This document shows positions 1,670 through 32,029 of a stretch of 64,000 bases of DNA, piece after piece; position 1 is the stretch's first letter; every line of letters begins with the position of its first letter. Made by a program: the position numbers and the translations under genes. Location of the stretch: the NCBI GenBank assembly GCA_963753345.1, contig CAVWBU010000018.1:1-64000 (forward strand), given 5' to 3'. Source of the stretch: an uncultured Fibrobacterota bacterium. Its GTDB lineage: Bacteria > Fibrobacterota > Chitinivibrionia > Chitinivibrionales > FEN-1185. A model generated the notes under the pieces. The model had not been told where the DNA came from and made no database searches. It saw only the letters and a program-made list of their open reading frames with translations.

Positions 1670-1762
1670 GCATAACGATGAAGCTAACCGTTTTGGAGCA
1701 CGTTCTTCGGAATCTTATATAATGTAAACGTGCGAGAAAACGAGTTTAGCGCCTTGTTGGTT
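1670..1762 (-). repeat. attC site, class C
   Basis: 93 bp; four near-identical copies, always attached to gene-less cassettes. Confidence 0.9.
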
Positions 1763-2000
1763 CTGCGAAAGGCCGGGCGGGATTCTTCTCTGATATCTTT
1801 TTGCCCGCCCATCGTATTTATTCTTACGGCAGCCATCTTATTTCTGTTTCATCGCGCCATTGTCCACATCTTTTCGTGGTGCATGTCAAATTTGATTTAA
1901 TCGATATCATTTCTTTAGGCCGAACGATGTGGCCTTTTTCATGGCGCGATTTTGATTCTCAATTTCCTGGCTGCCGTGTGTATTGCCTTTTGCAAACCAA
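1676..2000 (-). other. Gene-less cassette, family 1 (325 bp)
   Basis: No credible ORF; bounded by gttggtt/aaccaac cores; nested inverted repeats. Confidence 0.9.
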
Positions 2001-2087
2001 CGATGAAGCTAACCGTTTTGGAGCACGTTCCTCGGAATCTTGTATAATGTAAACGTGCGAGAAAACGAGTTTAGCGCCTTGTTGGTT
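1995..2087 (-). repeat. attC site, class C
   Basis: Copy of 1670-1762. Confidence 0.9.
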
Positions 2088-2325
2088 CTGCGAAAGGCCG
2101 GGCGGGATTCTTCTCCGATTTCTTTTTGCCCGCCCATTGTATTTATTCTTACGGCAGCCATCCTATTTCTGTTTCATCGTGCCATTGTCCACATCTTTTC
2201 GTGGTGCATGTCAATTTTGATTTAATCGATATCATTTCTTTAGGCCGCACGATGTGGCCTTTTTAATGGCGCGATCTTGATTCTCATTTTCCTGGCTGCC
2301 GTGTCAATCGCCTTTTGCAAACTAA
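2001..2325 (-). other. Gene-less cassette, family 1 (325 bp), tandem copy
   Basis: Near-identical to 1676-2000. Confidence 0.9.
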
Positions 2326-6131: not shown

Positions 6132-6272
6132 GGCTAACGGTGAAGCTAATTTGCCCGACCAAGACTGCATATTCTATTCGCACACATCAAATGAATTCCT
6201 ACATGTAACGACTCCCTGCACTCGCCTGCCGCTCGCAACTGTGGAGGGTCAAGATTTAGCGACTTGTTGGTT
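6132..6272 (-). repeat. attC site, class E
   Basis: ggctaac..gctaat...ttagc..gttggtt; unique interior. Confidence 0.85.
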
Positions 6273-6523
6273 CTGCGAAAGGCCGGGCGGGATTCTTCTC
6301 TGATATCTTTTTGCCCGCCCAGTGTATTTATTCTTACGGCAGCCATCTTATTTCTGTTTCATCGCGCCATTCTTAATTTGCCACAGACGACGCGCAGTTC
6401 AGCTGCTATTGTTACTCTCTTTACCGTAATAAGAGCATCATCCGTATTGTTTTATCTTTTTCATGGCGCGATCTTAATTCCCTTTTGTCCTGGCTGCCGT
6501 GTCAATCGCCTTTTGCAAACCAA
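6138..6523 (-). other. Gene-less cassette, family 1 variant (different centre, different attC)
   Basis: Same arms as the 325-bp family; central segment replaced. Confidence 0.85.
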
Positions 6524-7312: not shown

Positions 7313-8451
7313 TAGTGAGCGTCTTAAATAAAGTTACATAACGAACGGATTTTCTTGGGTTTCCATGTACGCGATCTTGAAAACACCGATTCATCGAGAA
7401 GCTCAAAGTCTTCGTAAAACGTATTGGTTGTTTCTTCGTAGCGCATTGTTTTCCAGAGCCGTTCCTGATAGTTTAGTTCCGGATGATATTTCGGTATGTA
7501 TTCAATAGTGAGTCGTTTATGTTGATGACAGAATTGACGAATTCTTTTCCCTTTGTGCCACCGTGCATGGTCAACCCACAATTCAATTCTTATCTCTCTG
7601 ATATGATAAAGCATGCTTTTAAGAAAGGCGAGAAATCCTGTTGTGTTTCCCCTTTCCGCCCTCATCATACCATGTTTCCCGCTGACCGGATCAACCCAGC
7701 CGAAAACATTCAATCGCTTATGATGTTGGCTTCTCGTCAGTACTGTCGGTTGAGTTCCCTTTTTACACCAAACCCGCCCCAACTTCGGATGGATAGAAAA
7801 GCCCGCTTCATCAGCGAACAGAATCGACTTTTGCGATACGCCCGCCCGTACGAATTGGAGTTTTTTTTATCGTTTGGGTATGCTCCGCAACGCCCTTATT
7901 GGTGGCTTGAGCGAAGCGATACACCGGCTGCCGCAACGAAAAACCAAGCTTTCGAATCAACCGCTGGGCATGTCGTACATGCACGTTTATCCCGTGATGC
8001 TTCTCAAGGTACTCCACAACCACCTTTCCATCCCATCGGGTTCGTTCAACACCATATTTCTTCGGCGAGTGTGTTAGCGCTTGGTCCAAGAACTTCAAAG
8101 TGCGATTATCAAATTGAGAGGGGCGGCCTGGTCGAGGCTTATCATAAACGGCTGAAAGCCCTTCTGCATTCGCTTTATGGCACCACTTTGACGTGTTTAC
8201 CCGTGATATGCCGAGCAATTCAGCAACTCTGGCAGCAGGCCATCCGGAAAGCATTAACAGATAACCAGCAATACGGATACCTGCCCATGCGCCTGGTATT
8301 TCTTCGGCAAGGCCCAACAGTTTCTTCCTTGTTATATCAGGGTGCGTTATCGTTAAAGCTTGCATTAAGCCTCCTTAAGAATGGGTTTTGTATCCTTAAG
8401 GAATATACTCTTTGCAGACCAGCTATGTTATCTTATTTATGTCGTTCGCTA
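7313..8451 (-). mobile_element. IS630-family insertion sequence
   Basis: Imperfect ~30-bp terminal IRs (tagtgagcgtcttaaataaag / cttatttatgtcgttcgcta) flanked by TA; ends ambiguous by 2 bp. Confidence 0.9.
7324..8365 (-). CDS. IS630 transposase (HTH ORF 7811-8365 and DDE ORF joined by a -1 frameshift)
   Basis: RPGRP HTH; A8C slippery run at 7861-7868; after the shift FADEAGF...VDHARWH...PELNYQERLW. Confidence 0.9.
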
Positions 8452-10931: not shown

Positions 10932-11019
10932 TTCAATCTTCCTCCAGTTAAATTATTACAAACAACTAAACAATCCGGCGCGTTTTTGAGTTAGAGTCCG
11001 CTTTTTGTTTAAATTAGTC

Positions 11020-12042
11020 TCACGCTACCATTCCTATCAAGCAAATTTCATTTTGGCGATCAAAGATTCCCAGTCTTCCTGAAGCACCGGCAAGTACGTC
11101 TCGATTCCTCTGCAGACGCATTCTGCGGGCACCTGCGAGGCGATCTCTGCGTCGGGTCAGTATTGCCTTGTCCTCACCTTTGTGCCGCTGTACTGGCGTT
11201 ACATAGCCGATTTTGCCATGACGCCGGACGTTGTTGTAGAAATCAAAAAACGCCGTGAAGTAAGTGATACCGCCAACGTCGTCTGTAAATTCGCCCGGAT
11301 ATTCCGGTGAACCCTTGGTTGTCGCAAACAGTGATTCCACAAACGGATTATCATTGGGTGTCCGGGGTCGGGCAAACTTCTGACTGATGCCAAGATCTTC
11401 CAGAAACGTCTTGAACGGCTTTGCTTTCATCTGGGTTCCACGGTCATTGAACAGTTCCAGTATTTTGACCTGCTCCGGAGTCAGTTGCTCCTTTTCAATG
11501 CCTTCGTCAATCAGCTCTTTTCCTTCTGCATGGGCAAGGCTCCAGCTTATGCGAAAAGCGATTACCTTGCGGGAATACTCGTCCAGCAGCACGTAGAGAT
11601 ACAGGAAAATGCCTTTAACCAAGGTCCGCAGATAACTGATATCCCAGCACCATCGCTGATTCGGCCCTGTGAGCTCTGGTCGGTCAGGCTTGCGGCTGTT
11701 CCCATTGCGGTGGCAGCGCCCGCTGCGGTCTGTGGTCAATCCTTCATGCCGCATGACACGATACACCGTGGAGGCGCTTACCGCAAGATAGCCGGCATCC
11801 ACGCCCTTAGCCGTCAGAACCCGGTGGGAATCGTCCACGTATCTCTCGTCCTTCGCCAGGACGACAATGGCCTGCCGTTCCTCCGGCAACAGCGCATGGG
11901 GCGCATGTATCGGCCCGGGCTTAACATCCACAAGCATAGGCCGGGAAAACCAGTGCCGGACTCTGCGCTCCTCAATCTGGAGCAATGCACACGTCCGGTT
12001 CCGGCTTATGCCTTTTGATTTACCTTCGGAAATCACGACCAT
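11020..12042 (-). CDS. IS3-like transposase OrfB (rve DDE integrase core)
   Basis: PNQRWCWDISY...NDRG...PNDNPFVESLF. Confidence 0.93.
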   Translation of the reverse strand: MVVISEGKSKGISRNRTCALLQIEERRVRHWFSRPMLVDVKPGPIHAPHALLPEERQAIVVLAKDERYVDDSHRVLTAKGVDAGYLAVSASTVYRVMRHEGLTTDRSGRCHRNGNSRKPDRPELTGPNQRWCWDISYLRTLVKGIFLYLYVLLDEYSRKVIAFRISWSLAHAEGKELIDEGIEKEQLTPEQVKILELFNDRGTQMKAKPFKTFLEDLGISQKFARPRTPNDNPFVESLFATTKGSPEYPGEFTDDVGGITYFTAFFDFYNNVRRHGKIGYVTPVQRHKGEDKAILTRRRDRLAGARRMRLQRNRDVLAGASGRLGIFDRQNEICLIGMVA

Positions 12043-12092
12043 TATCGCTTTCTTCGTTTCCTCGGATACTCGTTCGCCCTGTATTGGTCCGA

Positions 12093-12446
12093 TTATTCCC
12101 CATTCACTTTTTTTTTAAGCGCCATGAACTCCACCGTCAGCGCCGCCAGCGTTTTCTCTTGAATCGTGTACTCTCGTTTCAACAATTCGTGCTGCTCTGC
12201 CGGAACTTCCAGCACCCGCTTCTTCCCAGGACGCATTTGACCAAGCGCCTTGATGCTTGCTTCCTTTGCAACGTCATCGAACCGCTTGAGATCGTTCTGG
12301 TAAAGCCCCTCCCGACGCAGGATCTCACCCTTCTTGCCGGGATTCGTCCTCACTTCCTGAAGAACCTGATACTTCTTCTCCCCAGAGAGATGCTTCCGCT
12401 TCCGGGGAACTTGCTGCCCATCAGTAACCGACTGGCCGTTGTCCAT
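12093..12446 (-). CDS. IS3-like transposase OrfA (HTH); probable -1 frameshift fusion to OrfB
   Basis: ILRREGLY motif; A9 run near the 3' end; the -1 frame is open into OrfB. Confidence 0.88.
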   Translation of the reverse strand: MDNGQSVTDGQQVPRKRKHLSGEKKYQVLQEVRTNPGKKGEILRREGLYQNDLKRFDDVAKEASIKALGQMRPGKKRVLEVPAEQHELLKREYTIQEKTLAALTVEFMALKKKVNGE

Positions 12447-12577
12447 GGCACTTCCTTTCCGCCGCCCAACTGCAACACACCATAGGATGCTACAGGAAAT
12501 TAGTTTAATTGGACTGGGAAAGCGGACACGATCTCAGAAACGGCGGGAATCTGTGGCTTGTGTTGTCTTTTGTTAGT

Positions 12578-13098: not shown

Positions 13099-13237
13099 GG
13101 CTAACGTGCGGTTAATATGCCCGACTAAGACTGCATTTTACCTTTGCAAACCACGAAAGCTTGTGTAAAGAACCAGCTGCCCGCATACCAAAGCTGTTGG
13201 CAAACGCGGAGGGTCATGATTGAACCGCTTGTTATAG
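13099..13237 (-). repeat. attC site, divergent class A-like
   Basis: Class A-like interior with class D-like outer arms (gtgcggttaa/tgaaccgctt). Confidence 0.88.
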
Positions 13238-13518
13238 CTCTTGTGTTGCATTTGGTTCTGAATTGTCCGATTGTCTTTTCCAAATTGATTTGCCTTCGTC
13301 TTGATAATTCGGTCTGATTATGAACCCTTCCCACTGAGTCCTACTAACCTACCGAAAAGTTCCCCGGAAATATTGGATTTCGGCTCGATTAATTCGTAAG
13401 TTGTTGGACCCCATCCAACCGAGTCCAACCATTTAGCCTGAAGATCTCCCCGAATGTGTTTTCTTGTCCGATTGTTTTTGTCTTTTTCCGATAAATTGTA
13501 TTTAAATTTAGGCTATAA
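13105..13518 (-). other. Gene-less cassette, family 2
   Basis: gttatag/ctataac cores; only very short ORFs; similar to 21204-21579. Confidence 0.8.
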
Positions 13519-13650: not shown

Positions 13651-14260
13651 CATTTTATTTCTTAGATTTCGAAATGGTATCCAATAGAAAAGATAATTGC
13701 ATTTGACTGTTCTTTATAGGTGATATATGCACTTTGGGTCGATTTAAGATCATTTTGCATTTTATCGTTAGGGAAAATATAGCCAATATGAATATTGGGA
13801 CCATTATTCCTACTTTTACCATATCTTACTTCAGTTCCAACTCCTAAACTAAATGAATTATAAAAAGCATCATAATTACCAAACGTCATACCTTCTGAAT
13901 AACCATATTGAATATGTAAATACCCATTTACCCCATATGATGCGTTCAAATATGGCCTGAATATATTCTTATCTGATTTCTCCAAAATATATAGGTTAAT
14001 GCCAGTGTTCCAGCCGATCTTAGAGAAATAAGTACCAATAGCACCAAATAATGCAATTCTTGATATTGGTACGAATGAAACCTTAAGACCCAAAAAACCA
14101 CCGTAATTTATTCCCCATCCAAAACCGAGATCCAAAAACGGTTTATGATTCTTGGCGTCAACTTCTTTATCCGGATGTAGTTTCTTCAAGCTAGTATCAG
14201 ATTCAGTTTTAGCTGTATGTTCCTGTTGATAATTGTAACATTGATGTTTTCTAATTCTGA

Positions 14261-15903
14261 CCTGATTCCGTGAGATAAGGTTATTAAAAACAAATTGACG
14301 GCGTTGACAAGAACGAATATGGTTGCTAAGGCTTCTTGATAAGTTGTTGCCGGGGTGATTCCACTATGATTTGCGCTTCTGACCCCATGGTTGACAAATA
14401 CACTCAACGTGTCGGTGGCGACGTTTGTTTGGTTACGGGTCTATTTCCGTTTATTGCTCTCCTTAGGTCAGCCATCCGTGGCGAACGCCAGATACGTTTG
14501 CGTCCACGCTATGCGGAGTTGATTCCGCCGCGACAGGGCAAGCATCAACCGGCGGGCATGCGTTATCACGCGTGCTGCTATGTACATAAGATCCTGAATG
14601 ACCTTCCGCAATCTCCGGCGTGCAACTTTCTTACGCGGCACGTACCCCTTGTCGATTCCAACTTGGCCGCAGAGCCGCAGCATGTTGAACGCAAGAACCG
14701 CCAACGTCAACACCAATGCGTTGGTCGTGAACTTCCCGCTGGGAAGCCGCTCCAGCGCCATATCACTCTTCAGCTCCGAGTGAAACTGCTCGCTGGTGCC
14801 ATGATCCCGGTACGCTGCAATAACGTCGTCCGGGCCGGCGTTGCGTCTGCTCAGGCTCGTCCACCACGTGTGAACCTCTACATCCGGCAGCAGCAAGGCG
14901 TTTCCGTCGCGGTCGATTGTCCGTTCGATCACCTCGAACACAACGCGCATGTTTTCGCCGTTTCTTTCCCGTATTGTCTCACCAACGTACACGGTCTTGC
15001 CTTCACGAGGATGACGCCAGTCACCGAGCGCTTGAGCATCCACGAGCCATTCGTCAATAGATTCCCTGCGTATGTTCCGTTTGATTATGTAATCGACCTT
15101 TTCCTTGCGGCAGACTCGCATGTTTTCAATATCGTCATGTCCGGCATCAAGACGCACAAGGATCGAACGATCCGTTATTTTTCGAGCAAGGGCTATGGTC
15201 TTGCGCAGAAACTCCGGAGTTCCTTCCTGGCAATGTTGTTTCCCTTCGCGCAACTCCGCGTTCAGCAGGTAGCCTTCCACGCCTATGTAGGCAAGCATCG
15301 GAGAATATCCCTCGAACAACTTGTACGTGCAGCTTACGCCTTCCTTATGAGAACCACTGTTGTCAAAAGGAGATACGTCAGCGTCAATCGGAATATACGG
15401 TCCAAAGCAGGCGGTGAGCCGTGGCGCTGCTTTTTTCAACAGGGACGCCGAAGCGGAAAGGACTGCGTTTTGAACGGTCAGGCCCGTTTCGTCCATTCGC
15501 TGCCGCAGTGTAGCCTCGGAAGGAACCGCTTTCAATCCAAGCATCTCCTGAAAATAGTCGTCTTCACGAAACTGCTCGACCCCGTCAAAGTCTGGTTTGG
15601 CAAGACACAAAAGCCCCGTCATGGTCAGCAGCGCGTCCGCGGTGCTTATACTCCCGCTCTTCTTGTCCGGAGTAACCTGCGAAACACGCTCGCGCAAACC
15701 GGATCGCTCCGCAAGCATCCCGATCATTGCCATTCCACCATGGCTGGTCAGAAACTCGTCCGTCTCCGTGATTATCAACTTTCTCGGCTTTGGCATGACA
15801 CCTTCCGGGTGAATAATGTGAACTGCCATTTAGTCAAGCACCATTCACCCTTAATCTACACGAAAAATCATCAAAATGCCAAAGTTTTTCTCACGGATTT
15901 AGG
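14261..15903 (-). mobile_element. IS1380-family insertion sequence
   Basis: IRs cctgattccgtgaga / tctcacggatttagg; 5-bp TCTGA duplication confirmed against the uninterrupted copy. Confidence 0.95.
14468..15829 (-). CDS. IS1380 transposase
   Basis: TSHGG, IDAD, VRLDAGHD and YRDHGTSEQFHSELK motifs. Confidence 0.93.
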   Translation of the reverse strand: MAVHIIHPEGVMPKPRKLIITETDEFLTSHGGMAMIGMLAERSGLRERVSQVTPDKKSGSISTADALLTMTGLLCLAKPDFDGVEQFREDDYFQEMLGLKAVPSEATLRQRMDETGLTVQNAVLSASASLLKKAAPRLTACFGPYIPIDADVSPFDNSGSHKEGVSCTYKLFEGYSPMLAYIGVEGYLLNAELREGKQHCQEGTPEFLRKTIALARKITDRSILVRLDAGHDDIENMRVCRKEKVDYIIKRNIRRESIDEWLVDAQALGDWRHPREGKTVYVGETIRERNGENMRVVFEVIERTIDRDGNALLLPDVEVHTWWTSLSRRNAGPDDVIAAYRDHGTSEQFHSELKSDMALERLPSGKFTTNALVLTLAVLAFNMLRLCGQVGIDKGYVPRKKVARRRLRKVIQDLMYIAARVITHARRLMLALSRRNQLRIAWTQTYLAFATDG

Positions 15904-18615: not shown

Positions 18616-18708
18616 GCATAACGATGAAGCTAACCGTTTTGGAGCACGTTCTTCGGAATCTTATATAATGTAAACGTGCGAGAAAACGAGTTTAGCGCCT
18701 TGTTGGTT
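18616..18708 (-). repeat. attC site, class C
   Basis: Copy of 1670-1762. Confidence 0.9.
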
Positions 18709-18946
18709 CTGCGAAAGGCCGGGCGGGATTCTTCTCCGATTTCTTTTTGCCCGCCCACTGTATTTATTCTTACGGCAGCCATCCTATTTCTGTTTCATCG
18801 TGCCATTGTCCACATCTTTTCGTGGTGCATGTCAATTTTGATTTAATCGATATCATTTCTTTAGGCCGCACGATGTGGCCTTTTTAATGGCGCGATCTTG
18901 ATTCTCAATATCCTGGCTGCCGTGTGTATTGCCTTTTGCAAACCAA
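18622..18946 (-). other. Gene-less cassette, family 1 (325 bp)
   Basis: Near-identical to 2001-2325. Confidence 0.9.
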
Positions 18947-19771: not shown

Positions 19772-20533
19772 TTAGATTTCGAAATGGTATCCAATAGAAA
19801 AGATAATTGCATTTGACTGTTCTTTATAGGTGATATATGCACTTTGGGTCGATTTAAGATCATTTTGCATTTTATCGTTAGGGAAAATATAGCCAATATG
19901 AATATTGGGACCATTATTCCTACTTTTACCATATCTTACTTCAGTTCCAACTCCTAAACTAAATGAATTATAAAAAGCATCATAATTACCAAACGTCATA
20001 CCTTCTGAATAACCATATTGAATATGTAAATACCCATTTACCCCATATGATGCGTTCAAATATGGCCTGAATATATTCTTATCTGATTTCTCCAAAATAT
20101 ATAGGTTAATGCCAGTGTTCCAGCCGATCTTAGAGAAATAAGTACCAATAGCACCAAATAATGCAATTCTTGATATTGGTACGAATGAAACCTTAAGACC
20201 CAAAAAACCACCGTAATTTATTCCCCATCCAAAACCGAGATCCAAAAACGGTTTATGATTCTTGGCGTCAACTTCTTTATCCGGATGTAGTTTCTTCAAG
20301 CTAGTATCAGATTCAGTTTTAGCTGTATGTTCCTGTTGATAATTGTAACATTGATGTTTTCTAATTCTGAGATATTCCTTTTCATCGTCTGTCCATGACA
20401 TCGGGAGATCAAGTTTTAATGATTGAACAATAGAATCATTACACGGATTACACTTATCACATAGGGTTGTATCCAATGTGGCGGCACAAACCTTTGCAAT
20501 TAGCACAATAGACATAAGCGGTATTTTATTCAT
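19772..20533 (-). CDS. Outer-membrane beta-barrel-like protein (cassette)
   Basis: Signal peptide, alternating aromatic strands, C-terminal SIGYHF. Confidence 0.75.
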   Translation of the reverse strand: MNKIPLMSIVLIAKVCAATLDTTLCDKCNPCNDSIVQSLKLDLPMSWTDDEKEYLRIRKHQCYNYQQEHTAKTESDTSLKKLHPDKEVDAKNHKPFLDLGFGWGINYGGFLGLKVSFVPISRIALFGAIGTYFSKIGWNTGINLYILEKSDKNIFRPYLNASYGVNGYLHIQYGYSEGMTFGNYDAFYNSFSLGVGTEVRYGKSRNNGPNIHIGYIFPNDKMQNDLKSTQSAYITYKEQSNAIIFSIGYHFEI

Positions 20534-20679: not shown

Positions 20680-21177
20680 CTTTTCTAAGATAAATTTAAG
20701 ACCCAGTTTTTCTGAAATACCACCTAATTTAATTGTCTCTGAATATGTTTTATTAATTTGATCGGAAAGCCATTCTAATGTAATGTCAAAGGACATAGTA
20801 ACTTTAACCTTACCATCAATTGGTTTTGAAAATTTCAATAGACGAAATGGTCCCTCGGGATTTAAAGATGATATTCTTCCGTGTGCAAAAGCATCCCTGG
20901 TATTCACCAACGAAAGATCGATTTGATCTTTTATATTTTCTTTTAATAAAATTGCATTTACTTTGTTAATTATTTCTTTTAGTGAATCATAATTAGTGAA
21001 AGGATTTTCATTTATTTCTTCACCGACTTTATAATTATTAATTTCGCCTTTGATTATTTCTGATGAATTTCTTTTCCTGTTTATTTCTACAAGAAATAGC
21101 CTCAACACAAATTCCAAAGATTGAAGATTAGAAATAAGACGACCGATATTTTGTTGCATTTTCTCTTGATTGTTCAT
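20674..21177 (-). CDS. Putative HEPN-like protein (cassette)
   Basis: Probable start MNNQEK; helical; LE...RDAFAHG (Rx4H) motif. Confidence 0.6.
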   Translation of the reverse strand: MNNQEKMQQNIGRLISNLQSLEFVLRLFLVEINRKRNSSEIIKGEINNYKVGEEINENPFTNYDSLKEIINKVNAILLKENIKDQIDLSLVNTRDAFAHGRISSLNPEGPFRLLKFSKPIDGKVKVTMSFDITLEWLSDQINKTYSETIKLGGISEKLGLKFILEKP

Positions 21178-21197
21178 TATTATTGTCCTAATCTTTG

Positions 21198-21335
21198 CCC
21201 TAACGCCGCGGTAATATGCCTGACTACGACCGCATATTCTCTTTGCAAACCACGAATCTTGTATGAAGAACCAACCACCCGCAAACCAAGAATGTTTGCA
21301 AATGCGGAAGGTCATGATTTACCGCGTTGTTATGT
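21198..21335 (-). repeat. attC site, class A (with a compensatory base pair)
   Basis: Class A; gcggtaa/ttaccgc instead of gcgctaa/ttagcgc. Confidence 0.95.
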
Positions 21336-21579
21336 CTCCTTTTTGCATTTTATCTTTTCCGAATTGATTTGGTTTTGTCTTCATTAATCCGGTTTGGTGA
21401 ATACCGATTACCACGAGTCCCAGAATCAATCCGTAATCTCATTCCGATTTCTTGTCTTTCGTCTTCAATAATTCTGTCTGGTGAAGACCGATTCTAAGGG
21501 TTCAGGATCGTCCGGATATTATCCCCGAATTAATATTCTTTATCTTCTTTGATTTATTGGTTTTCATTTTGAGACATAA
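21204..21579 (-). other. Gene-less cassette, family 2
   Basis: gttatgtctc/gagacataac ends; no credible ORF; internal direct repeat. Confidence 0.8.
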
Positions 21580-21678
21580 CGATGGAGCTAATATGCCGGG
21601 CGCAATGGGTTGGCTTGATCTGATTGTATTTCTCCTCAAGCCAACCGCGCCCGGTCATGATTTAGCGACTTGTTCTTT
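21574..21678 (-). repeat. attC site, class F (105 bp, non-canonical core)
   Basis: gctaatatgccgggcgc...gcgcccggtcatgatttagc; ends gttcttt. Confidence 0.88.
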
Positions 21679-21933
21679 TCGCAAGGCGATTAGCAGCGAC
21701 GTACAGGAAGGTGCGACGCTGCTTTTCTTTGGTTTGGTCTTGAATAATTCTTTTCGGTTTCCTGGTTCAATTTATTAATTTTCTTCGCCGCCGCCGCCAT
21801 TGTCTTTCTTGATTCTCATGGCGCACAAGTCTTTAGCGCATGGATGCGCTTGAGATATATGATTGTCGGGCATAAAACTGTAAAATATCGGGAACATGGA
21901 GAACGACATGAGGAAGATTCCCGTGCAATGCAG

Positions 21934-22401
21934 TTAATCAAAGGAGCGGGAGCCTCTGGTTGGAACTCTCTCAAGCCGAATGTCCTTTCCCCAAAGTGCA
22001 ATAGGAAGCCCCAAAAATGATGCTTGGCCTGGTGCATAAATACGAATTCTTACTCCATCGGGAGAGACGTATTCCCAATATTGAACTGAAGCGGACGCGA
22101 TACCGTAGGAACCGTCATCTGATTCAGCGGTCATCTTAGGAATATTATAGGAATTAACAAATTCCTTGGCAAATTGCTCTGCCGACAGGTCCGTAACCTC
22201 AAACATTTTGTTAACAACGTCTCCAGGCCAGAATAAATATGCCAGAAGTAAAGAATTATCGAATACAAAGACTGCCTTGCTGGCACTCTCAAAGGAATAT
22301 GATCGGTACTTATCTTTATCAACAGATTCTTTTATTACAACCTTCCCGAATATCGATGAGTAGCGAAGGTCAATTAAACCAGTTGCCTCGGAGAGAGACA
22401 T
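21934..22401 (-). CDS. Hypothetical protein; possibly the frameshifted C-terminus of 22442-24001
   Basis: Frame is open ~20 codons upstream (…VKFKGFYIG) and overlaps the end of the upstream gene. Confidence 0.6.
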   Translation of the reverse strand: MSLSEATGLIDLRYSSIFGKVVIKESVDKDKYRSYSFESASKAVFVFDNSLLLAYLFWPGDVVNKMFEVTDLSAEQFAKEFVNSYNIPKMTAESDDGSYGIASASVQYWEYVSPDGVRIRIYAPGQASFLGLPIALWGKDIRLERVPTRGSRSFD

Positions 22402-22441
22402 TCCAATGTAGAAGCCTTTAAACTTAACCGAGGTTTGTCGG

Positions 22442-24001
22442 CTACTTGCTTCCTGGGCTAATTAACCTACAGAGGACAATTTTATCATCGACAACAGGAT
22501 TGCCATAATTTCTGGATGATTGGAAGTACTTTAAGGCCTCCGGAATATTTTTTTGCATGTCGATTCCGTAAAAAGAAGCGTTTGCAAGTTGATAAAATGA
22601 TTCTGATATTGACGAGTTGAGGCCGGAGGTATCGATAAATAATCTTTGCGCTGATGGAATGATTGAATAGGCGTCAGTGAATTTCCTAAAAGTTACCAGG
22701 GCTTTCTTGAAATATTGGCTGGTCATAAGGTCGTGTGCTTGTGAAAGAAGTAATGAAGTTGGAATAGCGGCAAGACTGTCTTCTACTCTTTGTTTTGCTT
22801 GTGCAACCCTTAAACTGTCATTCCGGTGCTCGACGGCGAGTTGCATAATTGTTTCTAGGGAATCCAGATGGGAAGCAAGCAATAGAGCAGCGTTAGGTAT
22901 TTGGTCGATGCCAATTTTGCATAATTCATTATACTTGCCTTTTATTGATTTAACCTCATCGAGAGATGAAAGTGAAGTGTACTGGCTATTCTGTAGTGCT
23001 ACCCATTTTACGAATAACCGGAGTTTCAGGGAATTAAAAGCCTTGGTCTGGCTTCTGGTTACATCAATTAGTGAGGTATATAATTTATCGAGTTCGGACA
23101 TCAACGAAAATAGGGTTTCAGAATTCTCGGGAAGGTTTTTGCCTAATTTATCGGCGAATACTTTGAAGTTTTTAGCAGATTCCCTTTTAGTCACCCAGAG
23201 AGTATTGATTTTCCGAAATGAATAGGATATATAAGCTTTTGCTCGAAATGGAGCAAAGGAAACATTTTGGATGTCTAGGAATGTCTTTTTGTCAAGTGAC
23301 GCATCATTGAACCCAGTATTACTGCAAAATACACCGTCTAAGGAAACGCCGATACAAACACTAGGAAAAGATGGAACAAAGAGATCTGCCCCAACGGTCG
23401 TAAAAAGGCCTGCGTTAAAGAAATTCGACGCAGGAGCCTGAAACGTTGATGTCGTTGGTTCTCCTCCAAGAGTGATATTAGAAGAGGTTGTTGTCTTTTG
23501 ATAATAATAAATATCATGGTTCAGAGCAAGCCCTGCTCCGAAAAATAGGTCGCAGAAGGACAGCGGGGTCATGTGGCCTGAAATGTAGGTGGTATACAAC
23601 AGAGGAATATATTGTACCTGTGGACTTTCGACAAATTGCCAATTCATGTTGTCTACGTTGTCATAATAGGATACGGTGGCTTGCTTGGCCTTTATGGTAT
23701 TTATCGGCAGGATTTCGGCGGACCAAGCGAGATTAAAGTAAGACGATGGATACAATGCCAAAGTAATTGTTCCGGTGGGACCAATTCCGCTCAAAGAAGA
23801 ATATTCATGATAATTAGGATTCAGTTGAAACTCGTAATTTGCTAGGCCCCCTGATAGGCGAATATCGACATATGGAATTGAAAACATTGATGTGCCAGCA
23901 TTGCACAGAGAGGGAGCAAGCAGGAGCAGAAATTGAAGAAGGATTCGGCTCGGTGTTTGCTTAAAACCATATGACATGTTTAGAATTTCTTTGGAATACA
24001 A
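22442..24001 (-). CDS. Secreted or outer-membrane protein with beta-rich N-half and Sel1/TPR-like C-half
   Basis: Signal peptide; YQLANASFYGIDMQKNIPEALKYF Sel1-like repeat. Confidence 0.65.
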   Translation of the reverse strand: MYSKEILNMSYGFKQTPSRILLQFLLLLAPSLCNAGTSMFSIPYVDIRLSGGLANYEFQLNPNYHEYSSLSGIGPTGTITLALYPSSYFNLAWSAEILPINTIKAKQATVSYYDNVDNMNWQFVESPQVQYIPLLYTTYISGHMTPLSFCDLFFGAGLALNHDIYYYQKTTTSSNITLGGEPTTSTFQAPASNFFNAGLFTTVGADLFVPSFPSVCIGVSLDGVFCSNTGFNDASLDKKTFLDIQNVSFAPFRAKAYISYSFRKINTLWVTKRESAKNFKVFADKLGKNLPENSETLFSLMSELDKLYTSLIDVTRSQTKAFNSLKLRLFVKWVALQNSQYTSLSSLDEVKSIKGKYNELCKIGIDQIPNAALLLASHLDSLETIMQLAVEHRNDSLRVAQAKQRVEDSLAAIPTSLLLSQAHDLMTSQYFKKALVTFRKFTDAYSIIPSAQRLFIDTSGLNSSISESFYQLANASFYGIDMQKNIPEALKYFQSSRNYGNPVVDDKIVLCRLISPGSK

Positions 24002-24008
24002 AGCTTTC

Positions 24009-24902
24009 TCACTCTAATTGAAACGATATTTCTACGGTGGTTTGCACTTTGACGGGAACACCCTTAATCCTACCGGGCTTGTATTCCCACCTTGCGATGG
24101 CCTTTCTAACTTCGTCGGATAACGCTTCGTTCGGTGAGCTAATGACGTTGATATCTGATACTTTGCCGTTCTGGTCGATAACAAGACTGGTTTTTACAAT
24201 TCCAGAGATACCTTGGTCTTTCACAAATTCGGGATAAAAAGGCTGAATTTTCTTAATGGGAACTGGCTTTTCGTCTACCGAATCTTTATCGTAGATTACA
24301 TTTCTATCAATTCCTATGGTATCTGGATTGCTATCGGATGCTGTCCAGCCTGGGCGTTTTGTAGCTAAAGGGGCTTCAGGTAATTTGTCAGTATCGCTCG
24401 GAGAATCTTTTGCGATGTTATTTTCGTTTTCAGGTGCGCTATTTTGACTCGGTTCAACTGGACTATTTTCGCTTTCAGATTGCGCATTGTCATTTGTTAT
24501 GTCGGCCGGCACTTCTTTTGACGTGCTGGAGACAATCATTTTCCTGTTTTCAAGTTGTTTGACCAAATGGTCAAATAAGACGTCGGTCTTCATTCTATCG
24601 GCTAAAGACTGATTGTTGTACTGGTCAATGATGTCACTAACTTTAACCAAGGTCATCGAGAATGTAAAATGCTCTTTAGGAATTATGGCGAAATTGTCAG
24701 TGACAACATGAAAAAAGCCAAGGAATAGGAGAACACATACGAATATAAAGATCGCAGCAATGGATGATTTTACTTTGTTTGATGGCTTGTCTTGGACTTT
24801 CGTTTCTGGATGCGCACATTCATAACACAAATGTTGCTCTTCTGTACCGTAATTGCCTAATGCACCTATGTCTTTACCACATTTGGAACAGACACTTGCC
24901 AT
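24009..24902 (-). CDS. TonB-family protein (N-terminal Zn ribbon, TM, C-terminal TonB_C)
   Basis: PFYPEFVKDQGISGIV...IDQNGKV...WEYKPG...GVPVKV. Confidence 0.88.
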   Translation of the reverse strand: MASVCSKCGKDIGALGNYGTEEQHLCYECAHPETKVQDKPSNKVKSSIAAIFIFVCVLLFLGFFHVVTDNFAIIPKEHFTFSMTLVKVSDIIDQYNNQSLADRMKTDVLFDHLVKQLENRKMIVSSTSKEVPADITNDNAQSESENSPVEPSQNSAPENENNIAKDSPSDTDKLPEAPLATKRPGWTASDSNPDTIGIDRNVIYDKDSVDEKPVPIKKIQPFYPEFVKDQGISGIVKTSLVIDQNGKVSDINVISSPNEALSDEVRKAIARWEYKPGRIKGVPVKVQTTVEISFQLE

Positions 24903-24913
24903 AAAAAACCTGC

Positions 24914-25393
24914 CTAATCCTGAATTTCAGATACGGTCTTCTGGAAAATATTGATTGGTGACAAGCGTCTTACAGGCGCTATTGAATTGCGAATAGCGGA
25001 TAGTAATTTTTTACCCTCAAGGTGGTCAAAATCGGAATCGGTCAAAAAACTTGTATCAACCTTTCTTATTTCGTCGAGTTGGCTGCATAGGAACCAGACT
25101 TTGGGGGTACCACTTGTGAACGAATATTGGAATACGTCTTTTCTACTGCCGTATCCGATTGAGCTATGTTCCAATACCATTATTCTGAATTTAATGACTC
25201 TTTGCAATGTTGCGTTTTGTGTGCTATTTTCAGTGAAATACATATACATCCAAAACGGTTGAGCATCTAATGTCCCAGGGTGAAAATCGAGAAAGGAGAA
25301 AGAGAAATATCTACAACCGCTATCAATCCATTCATCTCTCATTTCCTCAATCCAGCGCGGTTCTCCGGGTTCTGTAGGATAAAGCATGTCCAT
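24914..25393 (-). CDS. Hypothetical protein (first gene of the 4.1-kb cassette)
   Basis: 159-aa ORF, co-oriented and tightly packed. Confidence 0.7.
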   Translation of the reverse strand: MDMLYPTEPGEPRWIEEMRDEWIDSGCRYFSFSFLDFHPGTLDAQPFWMYMYFTENSTQNATLQRVIKFRIMVLEHSSIGYGSRKDVFQYSFTSGTPKVWFLCSQLDEIRKVDTSFLTDSDFDHLEGKKLLSAIRNSIAPVRRLSPINIFQKTVSEIQD

Positions 25394-25666
25394 AAAGATT
25401 TCTTTCCAATGTGTATTGATTAAATCGGAATTCTTATCGCTGCCACGATGGCAGCGATTTTCTTGTGCGCCATGTTTGTATTATACTTTCTTTTCTTCGG
25501 CGGCGGCTATCTATTTTAATCGTTCAAATTCATTTTTGCTAAATCGGATTTCCCGGCACAATGCCTGCATTTACGCCCGCCAGAGTGCCGCCTTGAATTG
25601 CTTTTGTAATATTCTTTTTATTTTGCATTAATCTATCGCCCAGGATGGGCGATTTCTCGCCTTGCA

Positions 25667-25771
25667 AAAGAACGATGAAGCTAATATGCCGGGCGCAATG
25701 GGTTGGCTTGATCTGATTGTATTTTTCCTCAAGCCAACCGCGCCCGGTCATGATTTAGCGACTTGTTCTTT
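25667..25771 (-). repeat. attC site, class F
   Basis: aaagaac...gttcttt; copy of 21574-21678. Confidence 0.88.
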
Positions 25772-25841
25772 CTGCAAGGCGATTAGCAGCGACGCGCAGG
25801 AGGCGTGGCGCTGCTTCTCTTTTATGGGATACCACGAATAT

Positions 25842-26885
25842 TTAATTTCTGCCTAATAATGAAACTGTCGAGCTTGTAAGGTCCACTAGATATTCTTGTC
25901 GGTTAATTCCCAGATTAAATATGACTTTATTTTTCGCATCAATCTTTAGGCATCTAGGGTCTTTAGTATCATCAATTTCCAAACTGTTAAAGCAGTCATA
26001 GGGGTCTTGCGGAACCCAAATTATGAAATATTCGTGTGTTGCTTTCTTATACCCAATGCAACTCCCTCTGAAAAAGACCCATACTTTATAAGCTCTATTT
26101 TCTGATGAGTCAATTACATCGCCCTTATTAATAGATGTTTCTTTGCACAGGTTTTCTTTGTACGTTGAAAAAGAATATTCAACTGTTGAATTGGATTTAA
26201 TTTGATTATAAATACGCGGATTATCTGCCAACCATTTTTTGCGAGCGTTTATTGATGAATTAACATCCAGCTCACCATCCTGCTTTTCAAAGTAGCCTGA
26301 TTCCTTAATTTTCGATTCGAGGAATGACAATATATTTGGATTGGCAGACACTTTTGCTGGAATTTCGCCAAGCTTTGTTTCGCCCGTGGCAAAATAAATT
26401 TGGTACTCAATTTGAAAGGTATCTTTTGAAAGAATGGAAAAGAGCACGAACGAACCGAATTCTGCGCCACTTCCGCTGGTATGACATAGGTATGATACAT
26501 AGGGCATATTATCAATTATCGCAAATTTAACGCTATCAAAGGAATGACATGAGTTTTCGTAGCCACTTTTAAAGACTTCCAGCCAGTCATTTGCGAAGGA
26601 AGACAAGACAACCAATTTCCATGGACAAGCCGAATCTATGGTCGCTGCAATATATTGCCGGTCTGCATACGATAATGTTTTCGTAACGGCTGGTTTGCGA
26701 GAGTATTTCAAAGTAACAACTGAGACAGCTTCCTTCCTCTGTAATTGTTTTGCCTGAATCTTGGGTGATTTCGTAGTATCCGGTTGGTCAATGTCACCAG
26801 CCTTGCTATTTGTAGATAGACAGACTGCTGTTGCTAAAATGGTAATGGTAAAATGGGTTAAGGAATAAGTCAACTTTCTAGCCAT
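25842..26885 (-). CDS. Secreted hypothetical protein (cassette)
   Basis: Probable start MARKLTYS with gagg RBS; signal peptide. Confidence 0.7.
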   Translation of the reverse strand: MARKLTYSLTHFTITILATAVCLSTNSKAGDIDQPDTTKSPKIQAKQLQRKEAVSVVTLKYSRKPAVTKTLSYADRQYIAATIDSACPWKLVVLSSFANDWLEVFKSGYENSCHSFDSVKFAIIDNMPYVSYLCHTSGSGAEFGSFVLFSILSKDTFQIEYQIYFATGETKLGEIPAKVSANPNILSFLESKIKESGYFEKQDGELDVNSSINARKKWLADNPRIYNQIKSNSTVEYSFSTYKENLCKETSINKGDVIDSSENRAYKVWVFFRGSCIGYKKATHEYFIIWVPQDPYDCFNSLEIDDTKDPRCLKIDAKNKVIFNLGINRQEYLVDLTSSTVSLLGRN

Positions 26886-26916
26886 AAAGCAAAACCTCTG
26901 TTTGTCGATTAAATGG

Positions 26917-27192
26917 TTATTCGTAAGCGTATGTACCGTCTGGCTTAACAAACGCAAGTGCTATTTTTTCTGCTTCCGATTCTAAACCGAGGTCATGGTT
27001 AACCCAATTCCATGTCTCTCTAATGAGCGTGTACGTTCCTCTTCCCCCGGCATATTTATCGCCGTAAGAGGTAAGAAAGTTGTTTCTGTTTAAATGCTCC
27101 GCAAGTTCTTCCCCGGACATTGTCATTTTGTGTTCATTAAGAAAGGCTCCTAATTGCCAAACATAGTACTTTGTTGAATTAATTGAAGACAT
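26917..27192 (-). CDS. Small protein with a recombinase-type HTH-like motif (cassette)
   Basis: EELAEHLNRNNFLTSYGDKY resembles IAxxLNxxGxxTxxGxxW; ggag RBS. Confidence 0.55.
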   Translation of the reverse strand: MSSINSTKYYVWQLGAFLNEHKMTMSGEELAEHLNRNNFLTSYGDKYAGGRGTYTLIRETWNWVNHDLGLESEAEKIALAFVKPDGTYAYE

Positions 27193-27477
27193 AAACAACT
27201 CCAAGGATAAGGTTTATTGATGCAAAGTTTATTCTAAACAATAGCGTGTTGTTCATCAAGACTTCACTTCTCGCCTAATCTCAAATTCATTATTTGTCTT
27301 AAATTTCCTGGCGCAATTCCCGCCATTTAAGCCCCTCAGAGCGCCATTCTTAATTTCTTTCGGCACAATGCCTGCCATTTAAGCCCACCAGAGTGCCGTC
27401 TCAAGTTGCCTTTGTATTATTGTCCTTTCTATTTTGTATTAATCCATCGCCCAGGATGGGCGATTTCTCGCCTTGCA

Positions 27478-27570
27478 AAAGAACGATGAAGCTAACCGTT
27501 TTGGAGCACGTTCTTCGGAATCTTATATAATGTAAACGTGCGAGAAAACGAGTTTAGCGCCTTGTTGGTT
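27478..27570 (-). repeat. attC site, class C
   Basis: Copy of 1670-1762. Confidence 0.9.
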
Positions 27571-27808
27571 CTGCGAAAGGCCGGGCGGGATTCTTCTCTG
27601 ATTTCTTTTTGCCCGCCCATTGTATTTATTCTTACGGCAGCCATTCTATTTCTGTTTCATCGCGCCATTGTCCACATCTTTTCGTGGTGCATGTCAATTT
27701 GGATTTAATCGATATCATTTCTTTAGGCCGCACGATGTGGCCTTTTTAATGGCGCGATCTTGATTCTCATTTTCCTGGCTGCCGTGTGAATTGCCTTTTG
27801 CAAACCAA
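27484..27808 (-). other. Gene-less cassette, family 1 (325 bp)
   Basis: Near-identical to the other copies. Confidence 0.9.
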
Positions 27809-27940
27809 CGCCGCGCTAATATGCCTGACTACGACCGCATTTTCCCGCCGCAAACCACGAATCTTGTATGAAGAACGGACCACCCGCGAATCAATGCTGT
27901 TTGCAAATGCGGAAGGTCATGATTTAGCGCGTTGTTAGAA
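27803..27940 (-). repeat. attC site, class A
   Basis: Class A consensus. Confidence 0.95.
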
Positions 27941-27954
27941 ATTAAATTTAATTC

Positions 27955-28344: not shown

Positions 28345-28373
28345 ATTGCCTCCTTAATTATTGAATTTCAAAT

Positions 28374-28478
28374 TTCTAACGGTGAAGCTAATATGCCGGG
28401 CGCAATAGGTTGGCTTGATCTGATTGTATTTTTCCTCAAGCCAACCGCGCCCGGTCATGATTTAGCGACTTGTTCTGC
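28374..28478 (-). repeat. attC site, class F
   Basis: ttctaac...gttctgc. Confidence 0.88.
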
Positions 28479-28754
28479 TGCGATAATCTCCTGTGGCGCG
28501 ATTAATGTCTTTTTTGTTGTTTCAATGTCCCACGCACCCACTCGCCGTACGCGCCTAATATATCGCCACCCGACGGAAGCCACTACGGAGTCTTCAGGAC
28601 ATGACGGGTGGCGCAACCGTCATGTAAAGCGGGCATGGCGCGGCTGCGTGTGTTGTTCGACGAGACTGGGCTTCTTGCGCGGGCAAATGTAACGAAATCA
28701 ATAGGAAGCCTGTAAAATAATTTACATAAGCAAATACATTAATTCATACTACAC

Positions 28755-30020
28755 TCATTTTATTACAAAGAATGACGACGTCAGTTTAGTATTACAGCCA
28801 GAAATAGACAAAAAGTACATACCAGTTGAAAGCCTTGACCTAGAAATATTAAGAATGCCATAACGAGCATCATGTCTAGCAGAATAAATCTTTCGACCGG
28901 CAGTATTGAAAATCTCGACGGCAAAGAGTTCGTTAGACGAATTTGGTAAGGATACTACAATCTTGTTTGAAGTGACGTTGAGTCTGAACCCACTGGCAAA
29001 TGTTTTCTTTCTAATCAGACTGGCGCTCGTCATACTTGGGGGCAGCGTCCAAAAGACATTATCCATTGTTAATATCTCTCCCGTAACGAATGGAGCCATA
29101 CTAACTTCAAGGAAATAATCGACATTGCTTAAGTCGCACGTTGCAGCCCATGCGGAAAGGGGAAGTACCAAATCATGCCATTTGCCGTCACCTAAAAAAC
29201 CAACAGATGAAGCGCTTATCCAATTCTGAGCACTATGCGTATAGTTTTCAACATTCATGACGAAATCTGTAGCGACTGTACTTTTCGCAGACACATGAAG
29301 TGTGCAATTCGCATAGGCCGACATATCGATGCCGACCAAAGCCCCGCCTGGAAAATTTGCCCATCCGAAACCGCCCCAGCCTACGTTTCCAGCCGTAATT
29401 GCTATCGCATGAGAAGCTCCATTTTCTCCTAATGAATCAGTAGAATCAATTGAACAGGTATTAGACCACGCAATAAGCTGGACGGTAGCATTTGGGGGAG
29501 TAACGCTCATTCTTGTGCGTTCAAAGAGTCCAAAAACAGGAGGTAGCGTACACAAAGCAGTTATTCGAAAAACCACATTAGGTCTATCTTGGCCAAACAC
29601 GCGAGCCGTAACAGTTCCCTTTCGACCACATTGAAAAAACATTCCGGCATAGGCAGCATCAGTTCCTAATATTCGCAATGGATTGGGGCTTGCATTCCAT
29701 GTCTTGCCGCTGTCGAGTGAAATTGATAATGAACATTGGACAAATACCGATGTGTCTTGCGGAACAGTAAAACGTATCCGACAATCTCTGCTTGATCTTT
29801 GTTGCAAGAGGCCATTGACATCGTACCATGAACTATCGCTGTTCCAAATAGTATCCACAGAAATTGGAACAGTACCAGATCCGCTATTGGCCTTTACACC
29901 CGCCTGGAATGTAAAGGCTACGGTCTGACCTGTATCTTTGAAACAAACTGATTGGCCAAAACACACGCTGGAGTAGGCAAGAAACAATAAGAATGTAGCT
30001 TTGAGGCTGGAGAACATATA
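28755..30020 (-). CDS. Secreted protein with carbohydrate-binding-like domain and T9SS-like C-terminal sorting domain (first cassette)
   Basis: Probable start MFSSLK after a G-rich RBS; WGGFGW...DMSAY...DGKWHDLVLPLSAW; CTD IFNTAGRKI...LSTGMYFL. Confidence 0.75.
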   Translation of the reverse strand, partial: YMFSSLKATFLLFLAYSSVCFGQSVCFKDTGQTVAFTFQAGVKANSGSGTVPISVDTIWNSDSSWYDVNGLLQQRSSRDCRIRFTVPQDTSVFVQCSLSISLDSGKTWNASPNPLRILGTDAAYAGMFFQCGRKGTVTARVFGQDRPNVVFRITALCTLPPVFGLFERTRMSVTPPNATVQLIAWSNTCSIDSTDSLGENGASHAIAITAGNVGWGGFGWANFPGGALVGIDMSAYANCTLHVSAKSTVATDFVMNVENYTHSAQNWISASSVGFLGDGKWHDLVLPLSAWAATCDLSNVDYFLEVSMAPFVTGEILTMDNVFWTLPPSMTSASLIRKKTFASGFRLNVTSNKIVVSLPNSSNELFAVEIFNTAGRKIYSARHDARYGILNISRSRLSTGMYFLSISGCNTKLTSSFFVIK

Positions 30021-30316
30021 CCCCCCCTTCGATTGCAAGTTTATCAGAATATTCTTTTGGCGTTTGTTGAACACCATATTATACTGAAATAATTCTGGTT
30101 TGTCCAGAGTATATTAAGACAAAGATATGCATATTGAATTTGCTTTCAACTTAAAATCCCGCGCGATTCCTTTTGCCCAGGCTTGTTGTACTAACTATTG
30201 CATTATTGCCTTTTAATAATGTCTTTTCTTATTAAATTATTTCCTTTAATTAGTTTCTTTCTCGCGCCACATTCCTGCGCGCCTCTTTTTAATAAGCGCG
30301 CATCTTATTTGACGCA

Positions 30317-30355
30317 GCAGAACAGATATTAGATATCAAACAACATATTGAATAT
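30317..30355 (-). other. attI site (crossover G|TTCTGC at 30323/30322)
   Basis: cgcagcagaac is the reverse complement of the first cassette's gttctgctgcg; no attC follows; lies upstream of intI. Confidence 0.8.
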
Positions 30356-30733: not shown

Positions 30734-32029
30734 ATGAACTCCGTTGTCCCTTCCTCGTTCTGGCAGTCGTATACCGCAACACTCCAAAAACTAGGTATTC
30801 CTTATCCCAAAAGCAAGTTTTATGTCCTGTGGGTAAAGCGCTTTGCTGCGTTCTTGAATGGCGTGCCTTTTGAGCAGGCTTCTCAGGAAATGGTTTTGGC
30901 ATTCCTTAATGGTCTTGAGAAGGACGAGCAGATTGCCGATTGGCAGGTGGAACAGGCGCGGCACAGCATCGAGATCCTTCTCAACGAACACCTCAAGCTT
31001 AACCTCCGGGAATCCGGTCGGCTCCAGGAGAGTTTCACCGATTCGGTTGACGACAGTGAAAAACTGCTCAAGGTTCATGGCGGTCTCATCAAGCGGTTTG
31101 CGTCCGAAATCCGGGTACGCCACTATTCGATACGGACGGAAGACGCGTATCTGTTTTGGATAAAGCGGTTTCTTTCCTTTCACCTGCTTAAGAATCCCGA
31201 AAACCTCGGGGCTCCGGAAATCAGGCGGTACCTCACGTATCTTGCGGAAAAGCGGAAAGTTTCCGCCTCGACGCAGAATCAGGCGCTCAACGCCATTGTT
31301 TTTCTTTATTCCCAGGTGTTAAAACAGAATCCCGGTGACTTTGCCGATTTCTCTCTTGCCAAGCGGCCTGTTCGCGTGCCCACGGTCCTTACCAAAGACG
31401 AAACCAACCGGCTTCTCGAAAGGCTGGACGGTGTGTGGCGTGTGATGGCCGGGCTCCTGTGGGGCGCCGGGCTGAGGGTGATGGAATGCGTCCGGCTTCG
31501 GGTGCAGGACATAGACTTTGATATGCAGCGGATAATCGTCCGGGACGGCAAGGGCGCCAAGGACAGGATCACCATGCTGCCCGCGCGGTTTGTTGCGCCG
31601 CTCAGGGAGCAGCTTGCGAATGCGAAAAAGTTGTTCGCCGGGGACCGGGCCGCTAAGATTGCGGGAGTGTATCTTTGGGATTCAATCGAGCGCAAGTTTC
31701 CGAACGCGGCGAGGGAATGGATATGGCAGTATGTTTTCCCGTCCGAAAAGCTTTCGGTTGACCCCCGCAACCGCACGGTCCGGCGGCACCACCTCGACCC
31801 GAACGTGCTCCAGCGCCGCATCAAGCAGGCCGCGCTGGACGCGGGCATTGCCAAGCGCGTGAGCTGTCACACCCTGCGTCATTCCTTCGCCACGCACCTC
31901 CTCAAGAACGGCGCCGACATCCGCACCGTGCAGGAGCTTCTCGGCCATTCCGATGTGTCAACAACCATGATCTACACCCACGTCCTCAACCGGCCGGGCG
32001 TGCCGGTTCCGAGTCCGGCTGATGCTTAG
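30734..32029 (+). CDS. intI: Integron integrase (long form with extra N-terminal SAM-like domain)
   Basis: GLRVME, GKGAKDR, HTLRHSFATHLL, LGH and TMIYTH, plus the IntI-specific insert VYLWDSIERKFPNAAREWIWQYVFPS; ggagga RBS. Confidence 0.97.
   Translation: MNSVVPSSFWQSYTATLQKLGIPYPKSKFYVLWVKRFAAFLNGVPFEQASQEMVLAFLNGLEKDEQIADWQVEQARHSIEILLNEHLKLNLRESGRLQESFTDSVDDSEKLLKVHGGLIKRFASEIRVRHYSIRTEDAYLFWIKRFLSFHLLKNPENLGAPEIRRYLTYLAEKRKVSASTQNQALNAIVFLYSQVLKQNPGDFADFSLAKRPVRVPTVLTKDETNRLLERLDGVWRVMAGLLWGAGLRVMECVRLRVQDIDFDMQRIIVRDGKGAKDRITMLPARFVAPLREQLANAKKLFAGDRAAKIAGVYLWDSIERKFPNAAREWIWQYVFPSEKLSVDPRNRTVRRHHLDPNVLQRRIKQAALDAGIAKRVSCHTLRHSFATHLLKNGADIRTVQELLGHSDVSTTMIYTHVLNRPGVPVPSPADA

Follow-up and report, generated by a model that had tools for sequence, protein, structure and literature searches.

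Gene-less integron cassettes with complementary ends in a Fibrobacterota bacterium: a candidate empty form of a stem-closed cassette design common to a second recombinase system

Gene-less cassettes have been described in large integrons, and several functions have been considered for them. The paralogous non-coding cassettes of Vibrio chromosomal integrons are gene-less, multi-copy, lineage-restricted and conserved, and selfish, promoter or RNA roles have been proposed for them (Boucher et al., 2006, PMC1382264); no end-to-end fold is described for them in the available part of that paper, where a non-coding cassette is one with no protein match and no ORF of more than 150 bp. Gene-less cassettes scattered in the chromosomal arrays of Vibrionaceae showed promoter activity in most of the cases tested (10.1101/2023.11.21.568050); that text contains none of the terms "secondary structure", "inverted" and "palindrom". 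The canonical attC site, with its R and L boxes, unpaired spacer, AAC/GTT core and bottom-strand fold, is described in the accessible text of two studies as a structure lying within the site (Bouvier et al., 2009, PMC2727003; Loot et al., 2017, PMC5371416). A more elaborate case is the DUF1874 motif, a multistem structure found in consecutive intergenic regions, which was proposed to be a complex attC-like site acting as single-stranded DNA (Weinberg et al., 2017, PMC5737381, as far as the available text goes). In the textbook pairing of attC the resulting junction is resolved by replication, and IntI1 is able to resolve junctions by strand exchange, according to the accessible part of a review (PMC4792948).

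Here we describe a family of cassettes of 325 bp in an uncultured Fibrobacterota bacterium, studied in a window of 64,000 nucleotides (contig CAVWBU010000018.1 of assembly GCA_963753345.1, positions 1 to 64,000). Like the paralogous cassettes of Vibrio they are gene-less, multi-copy, lineage-restricted and conserved, and like the promoter-bearing ones they are scattered in a chromosomal array; unlike the former, as described in the available text, their ends are closed by a ladder of short helices, their apex and attC are exchanged between members, and they have gene-carrying relatives. They have the elements of a canonical attC, but pairing continues about 10 bp outside the R box past a bulge and then into further helices. 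The DUF1874 motif, as presented in the accessible text, is intergenic, while the present ladder links both ends of a single cassette, and the 325-bp units match no Rfam family. A search of titles and abstract beginnings in the open full-text literature, with subscription papers and supplements outside its reach, found no description of an end-closing ladder. The 325-bp units are true integron cassettes and likely represent the empty form of a self-closing design that is also used by cassettes of another recombinase; gene-less paralogous cassettes as such are already known.

The first 32 kb of the window are a chromosomal integron, whose 30 cassettes lie on the - strand and run leftward, so that the + strand is the attC bottom strand. 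The integrase IntI (431 aa, 30734..32029, + strand) scores 454 bits with TIGR02249, for which the cut-off is 265 bits, and has the I2 insert; a putative attI-like site at 30317..30349 is recognised from its position and its likeness to the same site in relatives. The 325-bp units are bounded by attC sites with an AAC/GTT core, an L box and a foldable bottom strand, and their array is linked to this IntI with its I2 insert and to attI as placed by position. Six DNA sequencing runs, from peat, soil and sediment in two studies, contained at least half of the sampled words; RNA runs (X15-X20) contained 5-11% of them and were left out as evidence. Other contents of the region deserve mention. Pieces of the attI-to-intI region (30420-30720) recur on at least 10 contigs, in about 20 places altogether, and sometimes adjoin a cassette with a solo attI-like site (C24:64062-66029; L002). 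Three sets of transposase-like ORFs, judged by translation only and located at 7324-8365, 10982-12541 and 14186-15829, lie inside cassettes; the last of these sets splits a copy of the gene that is intact at 19772-20533. Candidate anti-phage cassettes (9031-9888, 16991-17488, 17595-18089 and 3077-3781) encode a TIR-domain protein, an Hjc-like nuclease and two further nuclease-like ORFs. Two short cassettes, 21204-21579 (376 bp) and 13105-13518 (414 bp), have neither an ORF of at least 90 aa nor an end ladder, and beyond the integron, at 32090-36530, housekeeping genes are flanked by long REP-like inverted repeats that recur genome-wide.

Four gene-less copies of exactly 325 bp lie on the - strand at 1676..2000 (copy 1), 2001..2325 (copy 2), 18622..18946 (copy 3) and 27484..27808 (copy 4). 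Copies 2-4 align with copy 1 gap-free over 325 columns at 95.1-96.6% identity, copy 2 being at 95.1%, which confirms the four copies of the preliminary description. That account had counted four copies only and missed a fifth member of 386 bp at 6138..6523 (- strand), which has the same outer helices with another apex and another attC; beyond these five, no further copy of the 325-bp body was found in the source genome (G000). Because the tandem pair 1676-2000/2001-2325 is the most divergent, separate insertions rather than slippage are suggested. The attC of copy 1 (1670..1762, + strand) is 93 nt long and of the open-spacer type, with R' at 1670-1676 and R'' at 1756-1762. Such a 93-nt site is private to the four 325-bp copies, as had been claimed, but the body is not tied to it, being joined also to a 141-nt attC (6132-6272) and to a 128-nt attC (L138, L139). 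R' and R'' of the same cassette are complementary at 7/7 pairs in the four members, with one G.T pair in copy 2, where a single change in R' gives this pair on the bottom strand.

The units had also been said to lack a credible ORF. They contain small ORFs of 50 codons on the - strand and 56-61 codons on the + strand, which reach or pass the 150 bp limit of Boucher et al. for non-coding cassettes; none of these has a Pfam match at E<=1. The + strand ORF of 56-61 codons has a hydrophobic stretch in all four copies. In type I toxin-antitoxin loci the mRNA is kept silent by end-to-end folding. By analogy, the antisense (+) strand might encode a small hydrophobic peptide silenced in this way, a reading with which the ORF in all four copies and the number of synonymous changes (5/9 substitutions, expected 2.7, p=0.08) would agree. 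A conserved small hydrophobic ORF as in type I loci was not found: L135 and L138, two of the eight full-length members, have a broken frame, and 6138-6523 and L134 have a different C-terminus. T-rich DNA, moreover, yields hydrophobic ORFs by composition, and a peptide would leave the ladders of the second system, described below, unexplained. We regard this as very improbable.

The anatomy of the body is as follows, from the ends inward. H0, which is the R box (7 bp), is followed by a bulged C and by H1 (10 bp), then by a side hairpin, H2 (10 bp), H3 (10 bp) and the apex. In copy 1, the left arm of H0 with bulged C 1763 and H1 occupies 1756..1773 on the + strand and pairs with 1985-2001; the predicted side hairpin at 1775..1810 (+) has a 7-bp GC stem and a 22-nt pyrimidine-rich loop. 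The left strand of H2 at 1826..1835 (+), invariant in 8/8 full-length members, pairs with 1968-1977, and that of H3 at 1851..1860 (+) pairs with 1941-1950. The variable apex, 1861..1940, is of three unrelated types across the family. All the inverted repeats named beforehand are where they had been placed, and the three wobble-type stem mismatches are indeed G.T on the + (bottom) strand. As a family feature the nested repeats hold for the outer stems, but the innermost one, ccacatc/gatgtgg, is confined to one apex type. The folding of both strands as RNA and as DNA, which had been proposed as a check, gave z-scores of -3.8 to -9.9 overall against 60 dinucleotide shuffles each (-3.8 to -9.0 as DNA, -4.6 to -9.9 as RNA, on both strands). 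As DNA, both strands of the body fold about equally well; the loops are pyrimidine-rich on the + strand. The expected "near-complete rod" is an overstatement, because only 52-62% of the circle is predicted to be paired, in a ladder or dumbbell plus the side hairpin. Nor does the body make a better attC: the predicted folding of the site is 0.30-0.39 in the circle and 0.27-0.37 in the bare site, and the idea of an integration booster was rejected.

How far is this structure maintained in relatives? A motif scan of metagenomes gave 14 loci, 13 of them real and one (L142) a chance match. In these peat-metagenome relatives the outer helices are conserved, while apex and attC are interchangeable: the eight distinct full-length bodies have three unrelated apex types and several attC types. 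Partial copies occur in two same-genus genomes among 60 related ones, and the junction motif occurs in 2/81 genomes, both of the source genus. Varying columns avoid the helices (10/88 paired against 29/81 unpaired, p=2e-4), which supports the earlier view of a structured, multi-copy gene-less cassette that is plausibly a selfish unit or a recombination modulator. Covariation, which had been proposed as a test, is almost nil within the family: of 44 pairs 35 never vary, and the only one with changes in both partners lies in the R box, so that the family alone gives no proof of structure, and H2 and H3 may be conserved as sequence and not as pairing. Placements directly at attI-type sites, read from locus context, are 4/16 distinct ones against 1/30 cassettes in the window array, a figure that short contigs may bias. 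The five dispersed copies in the window and the relatives next to attI would be indirect signs of mobilisation by IntI. Plasmid and phage collections contained no match to the family. Several candidate relatives were discarded: a match in G007, one of four matching genomes among 61, lies inside a coding region; viral-sequence matches (2 in one scan, 40 in another) were chance or coding DNA by context; and the motif scan of wider genome contigs was too loose, with at least 120 scattered matches.

The preliminary description overlooked that the ladder also wraps genes and recurs in a second recombinase system, described below. The same ladder closes three gene-carrying cassettes of the window, all on the - strand: 21580..25672 (4.1 kb, four ORFs, end helices of 9, 10 and 13 bp), 25673..27483 (1.8 kb, two ORFs, of the same end family as 21580-25672) and 28380..30322, the first in the array, which has a 440-aa gene with a T9SS-type C-terminal domain. 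One end family is thus both loaded (21580, 25673) and empty (L145, in G004), with compensated changes in H1, and in L130 a small ORF lies between compensated H1 and H3-like helices. Among the 62 IntI-array cassettes scored, a ladder was found in 12/14 with an open-spacer attC (two of the 12 from loci fetched with the family motif) and in 3/48 with other attC sites, as compared with 1/579 mismatched end pairs; none of the three combines a strong H1 with a strong GC helix. An R'' containing TAA is absent from all eight stem-closed cassettes of the window and present in the other 22. A structural class of stem-closed cassettes is well supported. Three repeats were seen in passing. A palindromic element in the trailer of 28380-30322 (28520-28660) recurs outside arrays on C15, C16, C27 and C49; a gene-less cassette of the source genome without an end ladder (C26:289138-289527) has two tandem GC hairpins that also occur in the leaders of 21580-25672 and 25673-27483; and at L156:9890-10182 (G004) a palindromic repeat is inserted in the terminal loop of an attC, at least doubling its length.

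The occurrence of empty and loaded forms raises the possibility that the empty units are vectors for building cassettes, foreign DNA entering at the apex to give loaded stem-closed cassettes whose arms are later lost. Three unrelated apex types and one end family common to empty and loaded members fit such a scheme, as does the cargo of 1-4 genes with intergenic DNA, unlike that of single-gene cassettes, and a reliable model of cassette genesis is lacking according to the accessible text of PMC4792948. The empty forms may instead be deletion products, and gene-sized cargo inside exact arms of family 1 is absent from the eight distinct full-length members. The body has no other match in the source genome, and no reverse transcriptase was found there either. 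This scheme appears doubtful to us. A retro-origin (retron or group II intron) was rejected on similar grounds, as the search of the 94% complete source genome found no PF00078 reverse transcriptase and there was no Rfam match.

A second type of array was found in the source genome, with a recombinase on C24 in which the I2 insert is missing and which scores 190 bits against the 265-bit cut-off of TIGR02249. Three paralogous tyrosine recombinase genes mark such loci, C24:5313-18050 (L213), C15:179060-180840 (L214) and C25:120-1358, and related recombinases occur in 24/81 genomes searched; the loss of I2 was examined in the paralogues of the source genome only. The integrase insertion is known to be incompletely conserved (PMC8138268, in its accessible text). 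An anchored search, which selects for ladders, gave 20 matches, and after four from L214 had been dropped as mis-bounded or chance, 16 ladder cassettes in 9/17 loci and eight genomes remained, two of them about 16 kb from the recombinase gene. It found no ladder cassette in 7/17 loci, five of which are 2.4 kb or shorter. The R box of the ladder cassettes is 8 bp long and is accompanied by a small conserved loop; H1 measures 10-22 bp, and a GC-rich H2 is usually present as well. Since their H1 sequences lie in a fixed register and differ almost everywhere while still pairing, there is strong sequence-based evidence that pairing rather than sequence is what is kept there. In a site-first parse H1 is at least 11 bp in 8/11 intervals; the three without a long H1, which are long intervals, probably span missed sites. 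Sites of this array type are asymmetric (1 versus 4/5 nt), and in 6/6 shown the bottom strand is the better-folding one; a gene-less ladder cassette of 418 bp follows the C15 recombinase paralogue.

Cassettes of the two arrays have features in common. Cassettes of the I2-less array and the 325-bp units both close their ends with an R box, a small loop, H1 and a GC-rich H2. The former have H1 from 12/13 behind a 3x4-nt loop, asymmetric sites and residence beside that recombinase, whereas the latter have H1 at 8/9 behind a 1-nt bulge, a canonical attC and residence in an IntI array. The two are of the same design, and the 325-bp units are not members of the second system. Some sequence is shared as well: the leader of 21580-25672 matches that of a C24 cassette (60 nt, 78%, E 1e-9), and the H3 region of the 325-bp unit, a module also seen in the second-system cassette L220, has a 15/15 nt match to an arm in G056. 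Most of the remaining shared modules are short (E about 1e-3 to 1e-2), a level that A-rich matches to the ends of ordinary cassettes reached as well. Two broader scans, one genome-wide for inverted ends and one with loose ladder criteria, were abandoned because chance matches and REP-like repeats dominated them.

Does the ladder act as DNA or as RNA? The helices are nearly all Watson-Crick, with H0 and H1 in a register fixed on the crossover. Among cross-arm internal mismatches, seven are G.T on the bottom strand, two G.T on the top strand and seven other, against 834 Watson-Crick pairs in a redundant count; the 7:2 split is not significant, and a wider count including local hairpins gave five bottom, four top and five other. 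Loops of the GNA type are specially stable in DNA. In 9/13 distinct small arm hairpins the loop on the bottom strand ends in GA or reads GCA; GNA or NGA make up 12% of background triloops, and the 13 hairpins are related to each other. In a model that shortened long bodies, pairing of a cassette's own ends at the core is predicted at 0.82-0.97 in 6/7 armed cassettes, copy 2 being the exception, and at 0.57-0.97 in 7/7 second-system cassettes; this is compatible with the mechanism outlined below and not decisive, because 7/22 ordinary cassettes are predicted at 0.75 or more.

Action as RNA would mean that the sense transcript of a loaded cassette forms a stalk of leader and trailer around the cargo, for processing or stabilising, and that the empty cassettes are structured small RNAs, as the preliminary description had considered among other possibilities. 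The body folds significantly as RNA, purines predominate in the sense-strand arm loops (mean 64%), as in many RNAs, and ssDNA and RNA motifs are hard to separate computationally, as is stated in the available text of Weinberg et al. (2017, PMC5737381). In four metatranscriptomes, examined over 21000-36000, one contig covers 27553-27667; the contigs come from relatives, carry no strand or end information and also cover attC sites and intI, so that DNA carry-over is possible. The search of Rfam 15 gave no match for the 325-bp units at gathering score (best E 1.2), and positive evidence for a structured non-coding RNA was not obtained. The almost pure Watson-Crick helices, the lean of wobbles to the antisense strand and the register fixed on the crossover also speak against RNA, as does the search of the source genome (94% complete) for a CsrA gene, which found none and on which ground a CsrA sponge was rejected. 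An RNA role is possible, if unlikely. From the presence of the ladder around genes and in the array of a second recombinase, it likely serves recombination of single-stranded DNA rather than RNA, and our confidence in such a role is about halfway.

The units might otherwise be ordinary promoter cassettes like the gene-less Vibrio ones, the fold being inherited baggage. The promoter activity of most tested Vibrionaceae cassettes speaks for this, and three sigma70-like matches occur in 1660-2340 against 1.0 +/- 0.9 in shuffles. In the 325-bp units the consensus matches are weak: the best, 10/12 on the - strand, passes in one of two copies scanned, and the others, 9/12, lie in the non-conserved apex. 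Promoter function, which would also leave the helix-biased conservation and the ladder around genes unexplained, seems hardly probable as the main explanation.

Our preferred reading, in which we have middling confidence, is that the 325-bp units are an empty cassette chassis, probably selfish, and that its bottom strand would fold as DNA, join the cassette ends and may pre-form a four-way junction. An outline of the process would be as follows. The units would be the empty form of a "self-closing" cassette design with complementary ends, and the structure would work as DNA, on the strand that IntI recombines. By prediction, short GC-rich helices formed within the bottom strand hold the two ends together as a ladder, and after excision the circle would be a closed dumbbell in which the crossover is flanked by duplex on either side. 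Within the array, end-pairing would swap the partners of the R boxes, own R' with own R'', so that the inner stems of both attC sites could meet the body and the flanks in a four-way junction. This junction would then be resolved by a single exchange at AA|C of the two sites, freeing exactly one closed dumbbell cassette, whereas with the usual, textbook pairing the same exchange would give a junction needing replication. The second system may be the source of the design or may have it in common with these arrays, and empty units would persist as mobile passengers. End-pairing could equally be a lock that hides the R boxes from IntI.

A bolder version, which we consider distinctly unlikely, is that the units represent an older cassette design whose empty chassis moves by itself and folds a Holliday-type junction in advance, so that an ordinary tyrosine recombinase lacking I2 could excise it in one step; this chassis would enter IntI arrays via a canonical attC and capture DNA in its apex. 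The making of cassettes and the joint origin of attC sites and the I2 domain are treated as open problems in the accessible text of PMC4792948; if the older-chassis version were true, the units would be a living intermediate, both for how integrons arose and for how new cassettes are made.

One genome thus holds an IntI array and an I2-less array with a common end-closing ladder, in empty and gene-loaded forms. A substrate of 325 bp and two recombinases would allow a direct test of whether structure outside attC controls excision and integration, and the design may offer a concrete alternative to "promoter" for the multiplication of some gene-less cassettes.
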